Source of the DNA: a virus
DNA length: 64,000 bases
Reading direction: 5' to 3' (one strand)
IMG/VR virus record: IMGVR_UViG_3300045988_125731
Coordinates: 1-64,000 of that record
A program made the translations under genes and the position numbers. The notes below the pieces were generated by a model. The model was not told the DNA's origin and did not search any database. It was given only the letters and a program-made list of their open reading frames with translations. Positions 2,681 to 11,402 of this stretch are shown here, in pieces; position 1 is the first letter of the stretch, and each line of letters begins with the position of its first letter.

Positions 2681-2758
2681 AGTCCGTAGACTATTTTTAT
2701 TTCCGCCCTTGCTTAACAAAGACAATAACAATATATCATAAATAAAAAATTATTGCAA
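2681..2758 (-). promoter_or_regulatory. promoter (-35 TTGCAA 2753-2758, 17 bp, -10 TATATT 2730-2735) plus 12-bp near-palindrome AGTCCGTAGACT (2681-2692) in the 5'UTR
   Basis: Same grammar as the three other early promoters. The palindrome sits immediately upstream of the RBS. Confidence 0.5.
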
Positions 2759-3013
2759 GCATAATGCACTTTTATTTTTTAAATTATTTTTTTGCAACTC
2801 CTAAAAAATACAAGTAAAATCTATCTTTTTTAATAATAAAAAAATTTTTAAAATTTTTATAAAATCACTAAAAAATTAACTAAAAATCATAAACCAAAGT
2901 AGGAAATTTTTGCTTGACAATTTTAAAAACTAGGTAGGAAAAAACCATCAAGCAAATTTTAACCATATTCACTACTTAGCACTCGCCCCCATAGACTGCT
3001 AATATCTCTTAAG

Positions 3014-3035
3014 TGTCAAGCAAAACTACTTGACA
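3014..3035. repeat. inverted repeat TGTCAAG-N8-CTTGACA, copy 2
   Basis: Arms identical to 202-223. Lies at the left edge of the ori-like region. Confidence 0.5.
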
Positions 3036-3044
3036 GCAAATATG

Positions 3045-3232
3045 GTTAGCAATGACTAACTAAATGCAATAAAATTGCAACAAAAAAGAAACAAAAAAGA
3101 AACAAAAAAGAAATAAAAATGAAATAAAAAAAAGTCTTTTAAAAGTTTACTATTACTAAACTTTTGGCTTACATTTAGTAAACCGATTAGCACTTCAACT
3201 AGATTTTAAGAAGTTAGCAATGACTAACTAAA
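3045..3232. repeat. 20-bp direct repeat GTTAGCAATGACTAACTAAA (3045-3064 and 3213-3232) bracketing the A-tract array
   Basis: Exact 20-mer twice, 168 bp apart. Each copy contains the short stem GTTAG/CTAAC. Confidence 0.6.
3081..3134. repeat. phased A-tract tandem repeat, about 4.5 copies of an 11-bp unit CAAAAAAGAAA
   Basis: Units at 3081, 3092 and 3103, degenerate after that. The 11-bp period matches the helical repeat, which fits a bent or unwinding element. Confidence 0.6.
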
Positions 3233-3320
3233 AAAGTGTATATAATTTGATATTATAACTATTATTAGGGGGTATAATTTGAAATTAAAACCATTTTTTC
3301 CGCTCCAAAAACATAGTCAG

Positions 3321-3392
3321 CACTTCTCTCTTTCTCCCATTTTCCCTCTCTCCCTCCCCCTCACTTCCCCTCCTCTTTCCCTTATTTTTCCT
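3321..3392 (+). other. 70-nt polypyrimidine (CT-only) tract on the plus strand
   Basis: cacttctctctttctcccattttccctctctccctccccctcacttcccctcctctttccc. Almost no purines. A C-rich stretch in an AT-rich genome. Confidence 0.6.
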
Positions 3393-3648
3393 ATTCATTT
3401 AGGGTTTACTTTGGTTCTATTTTATCTCTATTTAGTATTTATTTTAGTAATATTTTAGTTTTCACTTTTACTCTTAGATAGTTCAAGAAATCGCTAGTAA
3501 ATTAAAGATTTCTCTTTCATTTTTATTGGGTAATCTTCGAGAAACAAAGAAACAAAGTAGAAAATAGATATAAGATATGTTATATATACTATTTTGGCTT
3601 ATGTAAAACTTTCCTAAATTTTTCTTTAGTTCCAGGTAAAGGACTAAC

Positions 3649-3787
3649 TTAAGAACTCTTTAAAAACTAGACAAGATACTAATCAAAGAACTTTATAAAA
3701 ACTTTCCAAAATCTAACTTAAGAACTTTCCAAAAGAAGATTAGAGAACTCTTCAAAGAACTTTATAAAGACTAGGTTAAGAACTTTG
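3649..3787. repeat. iteron-like array: six copies of (TT)AAGAACTYT, spaced at multiples of about 11.5 bp
   Basis: Copies begin at 3651, 3686, 3720, 3744, 3756 and 3779 (spacings 35, 34, 24, 12, 23). An 18-bp subrepeat AAAGAACTTTATAAARAC occurs twice. Confidence 0.55.
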
Positions 3788-4061
3788 TAAGAAACAAAGC
3801 AAAAGATAAAAGTTAAGATTTTTAGAAATTTATTTTTGAACTTTTTCTTTTACAGAAAAGATTTAGAAAAGTTCCTTAAACATCTTATAAAAACAAACTT
3901 ATCTAGTAAATTCCAAGATATTTACAAGAGTGATTAATTTATAGAAGAACATCAAGATATAATTTTCTTTTTGTATTCTTTTTTCTTTTAAAAGTAATAT
4001 ATAAATAGAATATAATAATAAAGAAAAGAACAAATACTGATTGGAAAGATAAAGTTCTTCC

Positions 4062-4150
4062 CCTAGTAGCCGAATGGCTACGTTCAGGGGGAAGAAGAGA
4101 GCCTCTCTGGCTCTGGAAGAGAGCCCTAGCGGCTTGAGCGGGTATACAAC
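4062..4150. other. GC-rich cluster of mutually exclusive hairpins; possible origin hairpins or a small structured RNA
   Basis: Hairpin GTAGCC-gaat-GGCTAC (4066-4081). Direct repeat GAAGAGAGCC at 4094-4103 and 4116-4125 with GGCTCT (4109-4114) complementary to both. The local GC rise is obvious against the surroundings. Confidence 0.45.
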
Positions 4151-4566
4151 CAAAAAAGAAAGTATACAATTAGCAAAGAGAAAAGGGACAGCTAACCATT
4201 TCTTTTGTATAAGCTAAAAAATTCTACACGTGACTAAGTTTAGCCGATACAAAGAAAAAGTAGGCTTCCACTTTACCTCTAAAATATAAATATATAGGTA
4301 AGAAATTAAGTAAGATTTAGACAAGAAGAGAAGGAAATAAAGGGCTTATGTAAGGGGCTTATGCTAGTTATTTTGGCTCTAATTTATAACATAATTATAT
4401 ATATAACATTTTGTTGTTTTTTAGAGCCATTTTTTATCAGCTAAGACTCTTTTTTAGCGGTGAGTTAGCAGGAGCGGTTGACAAAAATCTTGCACGCTTT
4501 TTAAATAATTATAAAAATAAAAGAGCATTTATAGAACAATATTTATTTGTTTATACTATAATTCTT

Positions 4567-4595
4567 TTGTAAAAACAAATATGATACAATATATT
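4567..4595 (+). promoter_or_regulatory. candidate rightward promoter TTGTAA-17-TATATT for the helicase operon
   Basis: -35 at 4567-4572, -10 at 4590-4595, 56 nt upstream of the ATG at 4652 (RBS AAGGAG at 4639-4644). Confidence 0.45.
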
Positions 4596-4651
4596 ATTAT
4601 TTGTCTAATCTTAATAATTACAATAAAAATAGATAGAAAGGAGTTGATAAG

Positions 4652-6243: not shown

Positions 6244-6429
6244 ATGGAAAGCAGAAGGAAAGAAGAATACAATCGTCACGACCCATTTGAAGATTTTGAG
6301 TGGTTTATCGAAACAGACTTTGATGAAGATGATTGGTATGAAGAAGATAGAAATCTTAATGATGATGAGATTTTAGAGTTAGATGAAACTCAGGGTCTAT
6401 ATTATGAAGACCAAGAAGGCGAGGATTGA
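6244..6429 (+). CDS. very acidic small protein (about 61 aa; Asp/Glu-rich with aromatic residues)
   Basis: MESRRKEEYNRHDPFEDFEWFIETDFDEDDWYEEDRNLNDDEILELDETQGLYYEDQEGED. Translationally coupled to the helicase stop. Confidence 0.5.
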   Translation: MESRRKEEYNRHDPFEDFEWFIETDFDEDDWYEEDRNLNDDEILELDETQGLYYEDQEGED

Positions 6430-8078
6430 TATGTTTGTTAAAGTTACAACAGTTCAACATTTTATCTCTTACTTACGAGAGATTAGCTAAGTGTGATTTC
6501 CATTTAGATATTACACTAGATGAAGCGGTGTATAATGATGAAATTATACAACTTGCTGATAATGAAGTGTTAAGAGCAATTAGAAGAATTACTAAACACC
6601 CTTACGACGAACATAAGTTTAAAGATTTATGGAAGTCTAGAGAGATTGTAATTAAACAAAAGAGTGGTAAAGAAAATAAGAGATTAGTTAAAGAACTTAC
6701 TCGCTCAATTGAAAAGATGTTGTATATTCCAGAATATGTGTGTGTTTATACTGAAAAGAAAGCCAAGTATGGAAAGATAGGGAGAAGCGGCTTTTGGATA
6801 AACGGAGTTAAATATAGAAGATTGTTATGTAGTGCGGGACAAGCAAGAACGAATCGAACTATGTTTGTTAGTGAAAAGATTTATAAGGAGCTCCATAACA
6901 TTTTAAAGAATGGGTGCCACGATGTTAAGATTGAACTTGCTAAGTGGAATGCCTATTATAGTTTAACATCATCTGCAACTTTTAGAGTTTCTGAACCAAG
7001 GGTTTGTGTTGTAAAAGATTGTGAAGTTGATAGACTAACTGAAGTTGAGTGGGTTACTGAATATCCTTCTAACGAACAAGAAGATGACATAGACACTAGA
7101 GAGGTAAATTTAAAGTTCAACTTATTTGATGGAATGGGGTTAATTAGTCCTGACAAAGCGATAGAGTGGGCTGGGGAATTAGAATTAGACCACACCCCTA
7201 GTGCATTTATTATAAGAAGTGCATTTGTTAAGGGATTAGTTGCTACGTTTGATTTTCATAAGTTTGCTAGAAAGTTAGAAGAACAAACTGGAGAAACCCC
7301 AATGCTAACTGATATTTATGGAAATCGATATAACCCTTATGAAATTGACATAGTATTATCAGAAAGTCAATTCAAACTTTGGAGAGGTTATAAATCTTGG
7401 GAAGAATACTGTGAGTGTTTAAAGAAAAGTAAAATACATTGGGGAGTAAGTAAGTTTACTCCTAAGATTGAAAAGGATTATATTAGAACTAACTACCAAT
7501 TCTTACAAGTTCTTAATTTAAGCGATGAAGATATTGCTAATTTATGCCAACCTACTATTGATTGGTTAAATGGAATTAAGGGTGGAGATGTAGACCAAAT
7601 GCAATTATATTTGTTAGGTAAGGCTGTAAAAGAGCAAAACCCTGAAAAGTTATGGCAAGGAATACAAGACCATTTTGTAAGAGCGTTGCTTTTAGATAAA
7701 AGATTAATTGCTGACCCCTATATTCAAAGTAGAATAGTTAATTCTCTAAATAAGAGAGTTGAAGAAAGTTACTTTGGAAAAATTTTAATTGCAGGAAATT
7801 ATCAAATAATGGTAAGCGACCCATATGCTTTTTGTGAACATATGTTTGGACTAGAAGTTAAGGGGCTACTTAATAGAAACGAACATTTTTCACATTATTG
7901 GAATCAAAGGGGTGTAAAGGAAGTAGCAGCAATGCGTGCTCCTTTGACTTGGAGAAGTGAAGTTAATTTACTTAATTTACAAAACAATGAAGAAACTAAA
8001 GAGTGGTACAAATATCAAACCGATACAATAGTTTATAATGTATTTGGAGTTGATTGTATGTTGCACGCTGGCTCGGAT
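6426..8078 (+). CDS. exon 1 of a large early protein (about 935 aa after splicing) of unknown function
   Basis: 551 codons open from a TTG start. The frame terminates at a TAA at 8079-8081, right after the proposed 5' splice site. The reading frame resumes at 8417. Confidence 0.55.
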
Positions 8079-8416
8079 TAACAAGACCAAAATAGTCCGC
8101 GTTTGTAGAAATACAGATGGAAAATATCTTTTTGAATTGCTGGGAAATCTTAAAGCTTCTACACCTATATGGAGCGTGAGCAGAAACAAGGTAGAAGATG
8201 GTAAGAAGAGTTTAAATGAAGGGGTCTATGACCTACTCTTCGCCTTAACAATAGATAATCAGCAGGGAAGTCCTAAATGGAAACCTTCAACGACTATCTC
8301 GAAAGAGAGTAGCTAACGCCAAGTGGAAAGACACCTAAACTATTTACAAATAGAATGGTGAAGATATAGTCTAAGCCGACATTATGAGAATGTGTTAAAG
8401 TATTACGAAAGTAACG
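8079..8416 (+). ncRNA. group I self-splicing intron (about 338 nt, no homing-endonuclease ORF)
   Basis: The 5' exon end cggaU(8074-8078) pairs with the internal guide Gtccg (8095-8099), giving a U.G wobble at the splice site. There are an AATTGCTGGGAAA P3/P4-like element (8138-8150), a P7 pairing GACTAT...ATAGTC with the conserved S element AAGATATAGTC (8360-8371), and GNRA tetraloop stems ctcGAAAgag and ttacGAAAgtaa. The terminal G (omega-G) is at 8416. Splicing joins two long open frames without a stop, and local GC is higher. Confidence 0.65.
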
Positions 8417-9571
8417 GTAGAACTGTTTGACGGCGATGTAGTATGCACAACCTCTAACCCTTATATCATCAATGGAAGATATGGGGGTAATCCAGTTTCT
8501 TATGCTGTAAAGAAAGCAGAAAAAGTAGAACTAGATGAAAAACAACTTTATAAAATGGACAAACTAGCCTATAATACTAAAATAGGATTTATCACAAATA
8601 TTTCAACATCTCTTTACGAAATTCAATCTCAATATAAAATTGGTTCTTTAGAGTTTGAAGAAATTAATAAGCGTTTAAAACTTTGTTGTAAACAGCAATC
8701 GGCAACTATTGATAATGCTAAAGGTGTTAAAACAAAAGAATTTCCTAAGTGGTGGTATAAATATAACAACCCAGAAAGATGTACTGAAAATATTAACACT
8801 GTTAATTTTAACAATAGTATCCTAGCAGATAAAAGACCCTACTTTATGAAGTATTTATACCCTAGTTATAAATTAGAATATCGTAAGTTTAGAAAGGACT
8901 TTGACAATTATGGTCTTATTGTATTTGGTAAAACTTACGAAGAAATAAAAGCCGAATACGAAAATTGCCCAACTGCTGAGTATAAAGAGTATTTGGAGTA
9001 TTATAAACAAAAGAATCCGTTGTTAGAAACCAATGGAACTATGAATCGTATTTGTTACTATATGGAAAATCAATTAAAAGATTTTACAAAACTTAATATT
9101 GATAAAACAATCTCTAGTCAAAATATATTCACAATTTTGTTTAATCCTGAATATGAAATTGAAGAAGGTAGTGCTAAGTTTAATCAAATGTTAGACTTGC
9201 TTCGACAATATAATAATTTTAAAGTTAATAAAGCACTTGCTTCTAGCGAGTATAACACTTACGAACAATTTTACAAAAGTTTAAGAAAGCAAGCATTGGA
9301 ACAAATATCTTCTAATATAGAAGAACTTGCAAATTACGCTGTGTATATTTGTTATAGTTACTATCCTAATAAACCGAAAGATTTTTTGTGGGACGTCTTT
9401 GGAAAAGGAATAGTAAAATATTTAATTAGTAAAAATCCACAAGTAGAACTCTTTAAATTAAAGATTGACCCAGAAGAGTTCAATTCTGATGATGTTAAAT
9501 ATTTGTATCAGCATTTTGAAAGAACCACTTTAAATCTTACACAAAAGGAGGAGTTAGTAAATGAGTTATAG
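8417..9571 (+). CDS. exon 2 of the intron-containing large early protein
   Basis: The frame is open from 8399 (stop at 8396-8398) through the annotated Met at 8555 to 9571. The junction reads ...HAGSD|VELFDGDVV... Confidence 0.55.
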   Translation, partial: VELFDGDVVCTTSNPYIINGRYGGNPVSYAVKKAEKVELDEKQLYKMDKLAYNTKIGFITNISTSLYEIQSQYKIGSLEFEEINKRLKLCCKQQSATIDNAKGVKTKEFPKWWYKYNNPERCTENINTVNFNNSILADKRPYFMKYLYPSYKLEYRKFRKDFDNYGLIVFGKTYEEIKAEYENCPTAEYKEYLEYYKQKNPLLETNGTMNRICYYMENQLKDFTKLNIDKTISSQNIFTILFNPEYEIEEGSAKFNQMLDLLRQYNNFKVNKALASSEYNTYEQFYKSLRKQALEQISSNIEELANYAVYICYSYYPNKPKDFLWDVFGKGIVKYLISKNPQVELFKLKIDPEEFNSDDVKYLYQHFERTTLNLTQKEELVNEL

Positions 9572-9812: not shown

Positions 9813-10616
9813 GTGCTTATTTTTAATGAAGAAGAACAATACAAAGAAATATTAAAGAACGGCTTTGCTAAGTTTATTAACATAAGAGACTTAACAATTC
9901 TTTCCAAATTCTTTTTAAAATCGGAAGTTTCTGCAGTTAACTGCAAAAAAGTTGAAAATTCAGAAGTTTTTGCAACGGACTGTCTACAAAGGGTTAAAAA
10001 TAAACTAATCGCATTTTGTACTAATTGGGACAAAGATTTTAGACCTATTAAATATGATGACCGATTAAATAAGGCTATTCAATTAGCAATAGAGAATAAA
10101 CAAATTTATCAAGATACAATTTCTTTTACATCACACGAACTAGATTTCATTCGTGATAGTAATTTAACTCTATGGGAACAAAAGTTATTATTTGTGTTAT
10201 TTACGTTAGCAAAATGGCAACAACACAGATGGATATATTTGAACAGTGATAGTGCTATTCAGATTCGTGATTTAAAGCTCATTTTGGGGCTAAATTTGAA
10301 AGATAGCGATACCCTTGACTTATTACACTCACTATATAAAAAACGCAAAATAATAGTGCTTTTAAAGCCCATTTTAAAGGTTGAAATTAATTATCACGAA
10401 GAACAAAAATATCTTAACCCTATGTCTTATAAACCTTGGCAAGAATTTGGTCAAGAAGATAATAAGGTTTTAGAGTTTAGAATTGGTAGTGATATGAGTT
10501 TATATTTTGATAAAATTATTGGTGAAAAGATTTTTCAATGTGAATGTTGTGGAAAATTGTTTAAACCTGCTGCTAAAGCACGCTACGCTAAGCGATGCCC
10601 AAAATGTACAAAATAA
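9813..10616 (+). CDS. hypothetical protein with a C-terminal zinc-ribbon (CxxC...CxxC)
   Basis: GTG start 8 nt after an AGGAAGGAG RBS. C-terminus reads CECCGKLF...CPKCTK. Confidence 0.5.
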   Translation: MLIFNEEEQYKEILKNGFAKFINIRDLTILSKFFLKSEVSAVNCKKVENSEVFATDCLQRVKNKLIAFCTNWDKDFRPIKYDDRLNKAIQLAIENKQIYQDTISFTSHELDFIRDSNLTLWEQKLLFVLFTLAKWQQHRWIYLNSDSAIQIRDLKLILGLNLKDSDTLDLLHSLYKKRKIIVLLKPILKVEINYHEEQKYLNPMSYKPWQEFGQEDNKVLEFRIGSDMSLYFDKIIGEKIFQCECCGKLFKPAAKARYAKRCPKCTK

Positions 10617-10753
10617 TTCCAATTTTCCATCTTAAATCATCACTTTTTCTCGATGATTACGCGACAAAATATTTTTTCACACTATAGGATAAGAAAGAGA
10701 ACAATGTTTTCGCTCTATCTTATCTTAAATTTATTATAGAAGGGACTGATAAA

Positions 10754-11122
10754 ATGAAGGAAAACAAAACAGACAGAGTGTCCTTGAAAGACATTTATCG
10801 TGAAGTTGCTCAGACAACAAATGTAAGCATTATAGACAGCCGAATTGTGTGTGAGGCTTTCTTAAACATCTTAATGGAAAAGCTTTTAAATTTTGAAACA
10901 GTAACATTAAGCGGTTACTTTTCATTAGAACCAACTGTTCACAAATCTAGACCAGTAGTTCAATGGGGAACTAATAAGGTGGTTACTTCTTGTGAGGCTC
11001 CACAAATTAAGTTCATACCTTGTAAACAACTTAAGCAAAGTTTAAGAGATAGTTGGAAAACTAAAAAAGCTCAATTAACAGCAATAGCAATAGATGACGA
11101 TAATGAAGAGGAGGACGAATAA
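10754..11122 (+). CDS. HU/IHF-family DNA-binding protein (divergent)
   Basis: Alignable by eye to Bacillus HU: VTLSGYFSLE versus IQLIGFGNFE, and IKFIPCKQLKQSL versus PAFKPGKALKDAV. Size is 122 aa. Confidence 0.6.
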   Translation: MKENKTDRVSLKDIYREVAQTTNVSIIDSRIVCEAFLNILMEKLLNFETVTLSGYFSLEPTVHKSRPVVQWGTNKVVTSCEAPQIKFIPCKQLKQSLRDSWKTKKAQLTAIAIDDDNEEEDE

Positions 11123-11123
11123 G

Positions 11124-11402
11124 ATGATTGCGGTTACGGTAGAAGAATTTAGATATTTAGAAAAGAATGAATTGCTTGGCACTTATGTAGTTACAAGAAG
11201 ACAAGGAAAGAGCAAACATAAGAAACATTATGTTGGCGAGGAAAATGCATATATTGTAAATTGGTTACGTAATAATGCTCACAGAACCAAGAACTATAGA
11301 TTAGCACCACCTGCATACATTAAGGAAAAACCGCAAGTTGTAAAGGCTCGAAACATTCGTAGTTATTCAATGAATACAATAAACGCCTATATGGAGGATT
11401 AA
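11124..11402 (+). CDS. hypothetical basic protein (about 92 aa)
   Basis: ATG after a GAGGAGGA RBS. Confidence 0.45.
   Translation: MIAVTVEEFRYLEKNELLGTYVVTRRQGKSKHKKHYVGEENAYIVNWLRNNAHRTKNYRLAPPAYIKEKPQVVKARNIRSYSMNTINAYMED

Follow-up and report, generated by a model that had tools for sequence, protein, structure and literature searches.

Does the DNA between two neighbouring open reading frames of this 64,000-nt stretch of phage DNA (the window) separate two genes, or does it interrupt one? The upstream frame (6426-8081) closes at a TAA stop codon at 8079-8081. The second, in another frame, is open from 8399, directly after an in-frame stop at 8396-8398, and ends at 9571, its first start codon being an ATG at 8555. 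A sequence-only reading had proposed that a group I intron at 8079-8416 splits one large gene. Our analysis indicates that the RNA at 8079-8425 is very probably a subgroup-IA-like group I intron, lacking a homing-endonuclease gene, within the gene for a YonO-type single-subunit two-barrel RNA polymerase (Table 1).

Genes are densely packed in the window, which encodes a terminase, a DnaE-type polymerase, RecD2 and DnaB helicases and RecU; in a near-identical contig (L007), YonJ and YonG are neighbours. Megablast against GenBank phages gave no match over 24 kb, and no close relative was found among GTDB representative genomes. The phage is uncultured and SPbeta-like, and a contig from a human gut metagenome is among its nearest. 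Upstream of the helicase/RNA polymerase block, two AT-rich regions (1-2055 and 2746-4651, 19-27% GC) hold no open reading frame of 90 aa or more and may represent a regulatory or early-promoter region, or small genes.

The intervening RNA has a group I intron core

When the 801-nt segment 7900-8700 was searched on its own, the Rfam group I intron model RF00028 matched 8061-8395 over its whole length (model positions 1-253) with 57.9 bits, above the gathering score of 50 (E = 5.3e-14; about 4e-12 if scaled some 80-fold to the full window, by our own arithmetic and not as tool output). Scans of the whole 64,000-nt window against Rfam, in both the 'gathering' and the 'evalue' mode, returned no match. 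Since 7900-8700 alone does match, these negatives reflect loss at Infernal's speed filters and not absence: the RF00028 signal passes the filters only for a short query. The GC content of the intron (37.5%) is higher than that of the exons (32.9% and 28.6%) and of the window (31.3%), while its folding stability by itself is not significant (MFE z = -1.31).

All 56 hand-derived base pairs of the model from P1 to P9.1 are standard pairs; they form 11 helices (P1, P2, P3, P4, P5, P6, P7, P7.1, P8, P9 and P9.1). For comparison with other introns we used a core model of 175 nt, R1, in which the P5 extension of about 100 nt is swapped for a tetraloop. The core DNA pattern is common in IMG/VR (at least 119 loci), and R1 gave 75 matches on these loci, 60 of them distinct. 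In the alignment of the 60 distinct related introns (A3), 91.4% of cells are paired, and sliding the partners by 1-3 columns lowers this to 36-46%. For the fitted helices the pairing is inflated, because A3 was fitted to the R1 structure, P7 excepted. P7 is 94.6% paired in A3, though absent from that structure. Compensatory (both-side) changes occur in 39 of the 45 core pairs, and none of 500 shuffles reached the observed values. By helix, such changes affect 7/7 pairs of P3, 4/6 of P4, 4/4 of P5 and all three inner pairs of P6, the latter 98.9% paired. Covariation among these 60 phage introns thus backs the P3-P9 core and its pseudoknot, formed by P3 and P7. A P7.1 hairpin after P7 is typical of subgroup IA introns; here P7.1 is present and covaries at 4/4 pairs, and the candidate region for a P7.2 (8309-8324) offers at most 2 bp.

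Most elements named in the sequence-only reading were recovered. The pairing of exon CGGAU (8074-8078) with guide GUCCG (8095-8099), the P3/P4-type element AATTGCTGGGAAA, the P7 pairing GACTA/TAGTC inside AAGATATAGTC, the stop codon right behind the 5' splice site and the locally raised GC are all present, and the covariance search that it had proposed, run on 7900-8700, scored above gathering. Its two GNRA hairpins do exist, but the count is three, each with a GAAA tetraloop (P2, P7.1 and P9.1). As it had also stated, the intron has no endonuclease ORF; two ORFs that overlap 8079-8425, of 92 and 70 aa, have no Pfam match. For P1, Rfam's own alignment of 8065-8073 with 8094-8102 was rejected, as it contains a U-C mismatch and lacks an exon-U/guide-G wobble. 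This alternative pairing (ACGCUGGCU/AGUCCGCGU), with 8 standard pairs of 9, overlaps P1 and could compete with it in the precursor.

With filters off, R1 matched 8079-8425 and nothing else in the window (next best 14.4 bits, E = 0.06), so that a second intron of the R1 type was not found there. Nor did other signs of introns appear in the window, where non-coding gaps are mostly AT-rich and the minus-strand replication genes look unsplit. The match and the covariation place the RNA in the group I family; that it would also splice itself is our inference.

Table 1. Coordinates of the interrupted polymerase gene, the parts of the predicted intron, and insertions in related genes. Positions without a contig label refer to the window.
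Feature	Location	Strand	Remarks
Exon 1, YonO-like RNA polymerase	6426-8078	+	551 codons, TTG start; last codon GAU is the first catalytic Asp, D551
Group I intron (predicted)	8079-8425	+	347 nt, no ORF; opens with in-frame stop TAA, closes with omega-G G8425; RF00028 and R1
Exon 2	8426-9571	+	381 codons plus stop; begins FDGD, brings second and third catalytic Asp
P1	8074-8099	+	exon CGGAU 8074-8078 and intron UA 8079-8080 paired with guide UAGUCCG 8093-8099
L1 loop	8081-8092	+	contains CAAA 8088-8091
P2 hairpin	8102-8117	+	6 bp, GAAA tetraloop; in MFE and centroid structures
P3, P4, P5 5' strands	8127-8133, 8138-8143, 8147-8150	+	J3/4 GAAU between P3 and P4
AATTGCTGGGAAA	8135-8147	+	J3/4 plus 5' strand of P4
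Peripheral P5 extension	8151-8252	+	about 100 nt, two stem-loops; an insertion in Rfam's treatment
P5-extension stem-loop 1	8156-8162/8191-8197	+	
P5-extension stem-loop 2	8200-8202/8242-8244, 8205-8211/8235-8241, 8222-8226/8230-8234	+	
P3, P4, P5 3' partners	8325-8331, 8259-8264, 8253-8256	+	
P6	8265-8285	+	GG/CC plus UCC/GGA
P7 5' strand	8292-8296	+	GACUA, pairs with UAGUC 8367-8371
P7.1 hairpin	8297-8308	+	GAAA loop, directly after P7 5' strand; 4/4 pairs with compensatory changes
P8	8332-8360	+	
J8/7	8361-8366	+	AAGAUA
P7 3' strand	8367-8371	+	UAGUC, within AAGATATAGTC (8361-8371)
P9	8379-8393	+	
P9.1 hairpin	8403-8414	+	GAAA loop
3' tail	up to 8425	+	CGGUAGAACUG; last base omega-G 8425
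D|xDGD insertion	L005 5310-5696		387-388 nt, no ORF
D|xDGD insertion	L130 4145-4532		387-388 nt, no ORF
D|xDGD insertion	L006		387-388 nt, no ORF
D|xDGD insertion	L131 4145-5226		same element as L005/L006/L130 with NUMOD3 ORF, endonuclease-like, apparently split in two
D|xDGD insertions	L190, L205		1.0-1.1 kb; ORFs of 224-254 aa with NUMOD3, GIY-YIG-like N-terminus by eye
Phage c-st insertion	L002 about 3098-3413		between CST179 and CST178; about 316 nt, group I core motifs
ID|xAKG insertion	L158 4433-4725		293 nt, no ORF
ID|xAKG insertion	L180 4428-5302		I-HmuI-like ORF: HNH_3, NUMOD4, NUMOD1
ID|xAKG insertion	L190 5436-6304		ORF with HNH_3, NUMOD4, NUMOD1; both sites occupied in L190
ID|xAKG insertion	L194 4434-5312		ORF with HNH_3, NUMOD4, NUMOD1
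ID|xAKG insertion	L003 about 2068-3222		
Extra C in Asp triad	L180 4145 (= L231 1660)		
Extra C in Asp triad	L194 4151 (= L217)		
Extra C in Asp triad	L213 about 11629		

The interrupted gene encodes a YonO-like RNA polymerase by homology

Joining 8078 to 8426 gives a predicted protein of 932 aa (...HAGSD|FDGDVV...), not the roughly 935 aa expected with the upstream 3' site. The sequence-only reading had left the host gene unidentified. The fused frames matched the Pfam family RdRP (PF05183) with 43.2 bits, compared with a cut-off of 23.8, and phrog_8308 with an E-value of 1e-120. In tblastn searches they aligned to SPbeta/SPBc2 yonO with 26% identity (E = 5e-27), to Bacillus phage BUCT082 with 36% identity over residues 9-883 in one uninterrupted piece, and to homologs from other Firmicute phages that carry an RNA polymerase annotation. 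A search of a large protein database gave 1064 homologs at E <= 1e-10, and among the best 120 most are uninterrupted and 900-950 aa long. Two metagenomic ORFs, P0001 and P0003, stop at the same residue as exon 1; P0003 is the exon 1 product of L005 and is 84% identical to that of the window. A PDB sequence search with the spliced protein gave no match. By these similarities the host gene codes for a YonO-like single-subunit "two-barrel" RNA polymerase, which falls outside the list of usual intron hosts given in that reading (polymerase, taken here as DNA polymerase, ribonucleotide reductase, terminase and lysin genes).

YonO, which has one subunit and is related to the multisubunit RNA polymerases, has been characterised by experiment; its triad of Asp residues is essential, and replacing the triad by Asn abolishes catalysis (PMC5467207). 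The motif context of the triad has been described (PMC2919709). The intron lies between the codon of the first catalytic Asp and those of the second and third, and a contiguous D-x-D-G-D exists only in the spliced product. Given the behaviour of the triad mutant (PMC5467207), the unspliced products should be unable to act as an enzyme.

Position of the splice sites

At the 5' side, the U8078.G8095 wobble marks the splice site and fixes its position, with P1 prolonged into the intron by U8079-A8094 and A8080-U8093. An insertion at the same codon boundary in another contig (L190) supports this assignment by exon-guide covariation: CGGAU/GUCCG in the window corresponds to GUGAU/GUCAC there, with two compensatory changes by eye.

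At the 3' side, no G other than G8425 gives D|FDGD in combination with U8078; the predicted junction cDNA reads ...GGCTCGGAT|TTTGACGGCGAT... In an alignment of the spliced product with 24 uninterrupted homologs, D551, D553 and D555 are invariant columns, and none of the 24 carries a three-residue insert in D-x-D-G-D; their motifs read AGADFDGDVV, AGSDLDGDIV, AGSDFDGDGV and AGSDFDYDII, among others. When the spliced protein was compared by tblastn with 80 IMG/VR loci encoding relatives, the alignment was unbroken in 73. It broke exactly at 551|552 in four (L130, L131, L190 and L205); their proteins share 43-85% identity with that of the window, and their insertions end in a G immediately before xDGD. 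A weak P10 of 4 bp can be drawn by eye between UUUG 8426-8429 and CAAA 8088-8091, and is not conserved in L005; an exon starting at 8417 offers no P10 by eye. The invariant triad, the four breaks at 551|552, the 3' domain shared with known introns, the pattern of differences from L005 and the weak P10 together argue for the 8078/8426 junction.

An omega-G at G8416, 9 nt upstream, had been proposed in the sequence-only reading. A G is present there and removal of 8079-8416 does fuse the two frames, as claimed, yielding a 935-aa protein (...HAGSD|VELFDGD...) that tblastn still aligned to BUCT082 across the junction in one piece. The fusion, however, places VEL after the first Asp and ahead of the second and third, within a motif that all 25 aligned sequences show in contiguous and invariant form, and the four other interrupted homologs break at D|xDGD. 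Related 3' domains point the same way. In the phage c-st insertion and the Staphylococcus terL introns the likely omega-G lies 5-6 nt past GGTAG, and in Quidividi an in-frame TAG TAA right behind GGTAG excludes a splice at the 8416 equivalent. Relative to L005, the last 31 nt before 8426 are identical, whereas the next 129 nt differ at 15 positions (14 third and 1 first codon positions, corresponding to 12 synonymous and 2 non-synonymous codon changes in 43 codons). Positions 8417-8425 are 100% conserved, like the intron upstream of them, and third-position differences start at 8428. Use of G8416 is therefore very unlikely, and the comparison identifies G8425 as the 3' splice site.

Could the two frames instead be expressed as separate polypeptides, a split polymerase with a decayed, non-splicing intron remnant between its parts? 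In the record of phage c-st, YonO homologs are annotated as 'N-ter only' and 'C-ter only', and the downstream frame has an ATG of its own at 8555. Against this, the unspliced products would hold just one of the three catalytic Asp residues of a triad essential in YonO (PMC5467207), the ribozyme core is intact and scores above the Rfam gathering threshold, and the 43 codons at 8426-8554 show constraint at the protein level, yet contain no in-frame start. As the frame, open from 8399, has no start codon ahead of 8555 either, these conserved codons would be translatable only after splicing. We regard such a split enzyme as slightly less probable still than splicing at G8416. That the RNA is no intron at all, but a structured intergenic RNA or a chance resemblance, would agree with the non-significant MFE z-score and the empty whole-window Rfam scans; it is at odds with the RF00028 E-value of 5e-14 over the full model, the covariation of the core across relatives, and the precise, in-frame restoration of an invariant motif, and is the least credible of the three, to the point of being negligible. 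An intron at 8079-8425 remains by far the best reading of the locus.

Related insertions in other YonO-like genes

The codon boundary D|xDGD is also occupied in L005, L006, L130, L131, L190 and L205. The insertions in L005, L130 and L131 resemble the window intron at both ends: the first 20 nt or so are shared, the last 65 nt in L005 are identical to those of the window at 59 of 65 positions, and L130 and L131 have the same 70-nt 3' end, in orthologs about 85% identical. Unlike the window intron, those of L005 and L130 have a different, longer central core (RF00028 18.5 bits in L005, below gathering). Shared ends with different cores suggest, at the sequence level, core swapping or recombination between introns. 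L131, L190 and L205 contain NUMOD3 ORFs of 173-254 aa, whereas the window intron has none. Upstream of the polymerase gene in L131, R1 also matched 477-661 and 898-984, with 43 bits (partial, 18-94 of 175) and 25 bits, which hints at a further related intron in one of the neighbouring genes. In L005, an ortholog from a gut metagenome, an IS200/IS605-type pair (Y1 transposase and an OrfB/TnpB-like gene) lies at 9916-11312, a few genes downstream of the polymerase; the matching positions in the window and in L007 lack it.

In phage c-st the insertion lies two codons (6 nt) downstream of the window site, at DMD|GD, and has the same 3' domain as the window intron; in both, the upstream exon ends in GGAU paired with a GUCC guide. 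RF00028 gave 25.4 bits (E = 1.5e-4, below gathering), and R1 gave 12.8 bits, below two unrelated matches, so that the c-st case rests on the RF00028 score and the visible core motifs. Three YonO-like contigs show an extra C in the Asp triad at exactly this position (GAT TTT GAC C GG(C/T/A) GA(C/T), or D-F-D-[+1]-G-D; positions in Table 1). In the zero frame the codon reads CGG. The three contigs, all from IMG dataset 3300045988, use different Gly codons and, by eye, have different flanks; in L213 the frame is broken elsewhere as well. The extra C could reflect a systematic sequencing error, a programmed +1 frameshift or a scar of intron loss.

A second recurrent site, ...ID647|xAKG, adjoins the invariant D647, K650 and G651. 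It is uninterrupted in the window and occupied in L158, L180, L190 and L194 (Table 1; the ORF-bearing insertions carry an I-HmuI-like ORF), and in Enterocloster phage CB457P2 (RF00028 27.6 bits), its relative PMBT24 being empty at this position. That group I introns interrupt essential phage genes at catalytic-site codons is textbook knowledge, and insertions at D|xDGD and ID|xAKG, the two most conserved motifs, fit the rule that catalytic-site codons are targeted.

DISCUSSION

We propose that the pre-mRNA folds into the P1-P9 core, that exogenous guanosine would attack after U8078, held in the P1 U.G wobble, and that the freed 3'-OH of exon 1 would then attack after omega-G G8425. Ligation would join GAU (D551) to UUU GAC GGC GAU (F-D-G-D) and so complete the metal-binding triad D551-x-D553-G-D555 of a 932-aa polymerase. 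An unspliced message would be read to the TAA at 8079-8081, giving a 551-aa protein with one Asp of the triad. This product and the 43 codons without a start together imply that an active polymerase would need splicing. Such guanosine-initiated two-step splicing is standard group I chemistry (PMC3984707).

Because the intron splits the Asp triad, an active enzyme would arise only after ribozyme folding and guanosine-dependent splicing, and splicing could in principle time the late transcription of the phage or tie it to the state of the host. The intron, which has no ORF, would persist by vertical descent or recombination, and endonucleases of related same-site introns might aid its upkeep or spread in trans. 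The position of the c-st insertion, shifted downstream by 6 nt, hints that spread might also occur by reverse splicing at GGAU sites. Taken together, the idea that this intron is more than a neutral parasite, with splicing gating phage transcription and with spread in trans or by reverse splicing, strikes us as improbable.

Gene callers report this polymerase as two pieces of 551 and 338 aa, each a 'hypothetical protein'; recognition of the intron restores a complete 932-aa YonO-type enzyme. Two protein clusters at 90% identity, with 53 and 177 members, show the same split, as does the record of phage c-st. A default Rfam scan misses the intron and routine annotation would too, so that similar introns of AT-rich phages may be under-reported. 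The same-site introns, with or without an endonuclease, with shared ends and different cores, and with one shift of 6 nt, offer a compact system for studying intron turnover. YonO-like single-subunit two-barrel polymerases join the phage genes colonised by group I introns, with two hot spots. In the literature searched we found no link between YonO-type polymerases and introns, an absence that is not proof of novelty; introns in this type of host gene apparently have not been described before. The intron itself is of an ordinary phage kind and well supported; it involves no new mechanism and leaves the workings of group I introns unchanged.

Comparison with known introns

The classical subgroup IA introns of phages are those of T4 td, nrdB and sunY, the DNA polymerase genes of SPO1 and SP82, and SPbeta bnrdE and bnrdF. 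The window intron is like them in general features, namely the type of site and the architecture, and differs in host family. Location in functionally critical codons of conserved and essential phage enzymes, the P1-P10 architecture and an extra pairing after P7 are described features of group I introns (PMC3984707).

The closest likeness in sequence is to the terL introns of Staphylococcus Twortvirinae (Quidividi, Romulus, Remus and K-like phages; the Twort ribozyme family), whose 3' domain is nearly the same. The shared part, J8/7-P7'-P9-P9.1, reads RATATAGTCTAA.CCGA...GTTAAAGTATTACGAAAGTAACGGTAG and is 83-85% identical over about 70 nt by megablast. Like the window intron, they belong to group I and have an insertion of the P7.1 type behind P7. 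The Twortvirinae introns differ in that their host gene is the terminase and in a 5' half and peripheral P5 extension unlike those of the window. A VSR homing endonuclease is annotated beside the terL intron of Quidividi, and Romulus has a 'group I intron protein' downstream, whereas the window intron is ORF-less.

In host gene, the nearest parallels are introns in the multisubunit RNA polymerase genes of jumbo phages, namely the PhiPA3 gp210 intron (PMC11620839) and that of 201phi2-1 gp273/274 (PMC2919709). The former encodes the HNH endonuclease gp210 (PMC11620839); the latter is described only as mobile (PMC2919709). Those hosts are beta-like subunits of Pseudomonas phages, whereas the window intron, with no endonuclease gene, interrupts the gene of a YonO-type enzyme with a single subunit, in a phage that is SPbeta-like and low in GC. 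In both systems, the intron occupies a highly conserved region of a phage two-barrel RNA polymerase gene.
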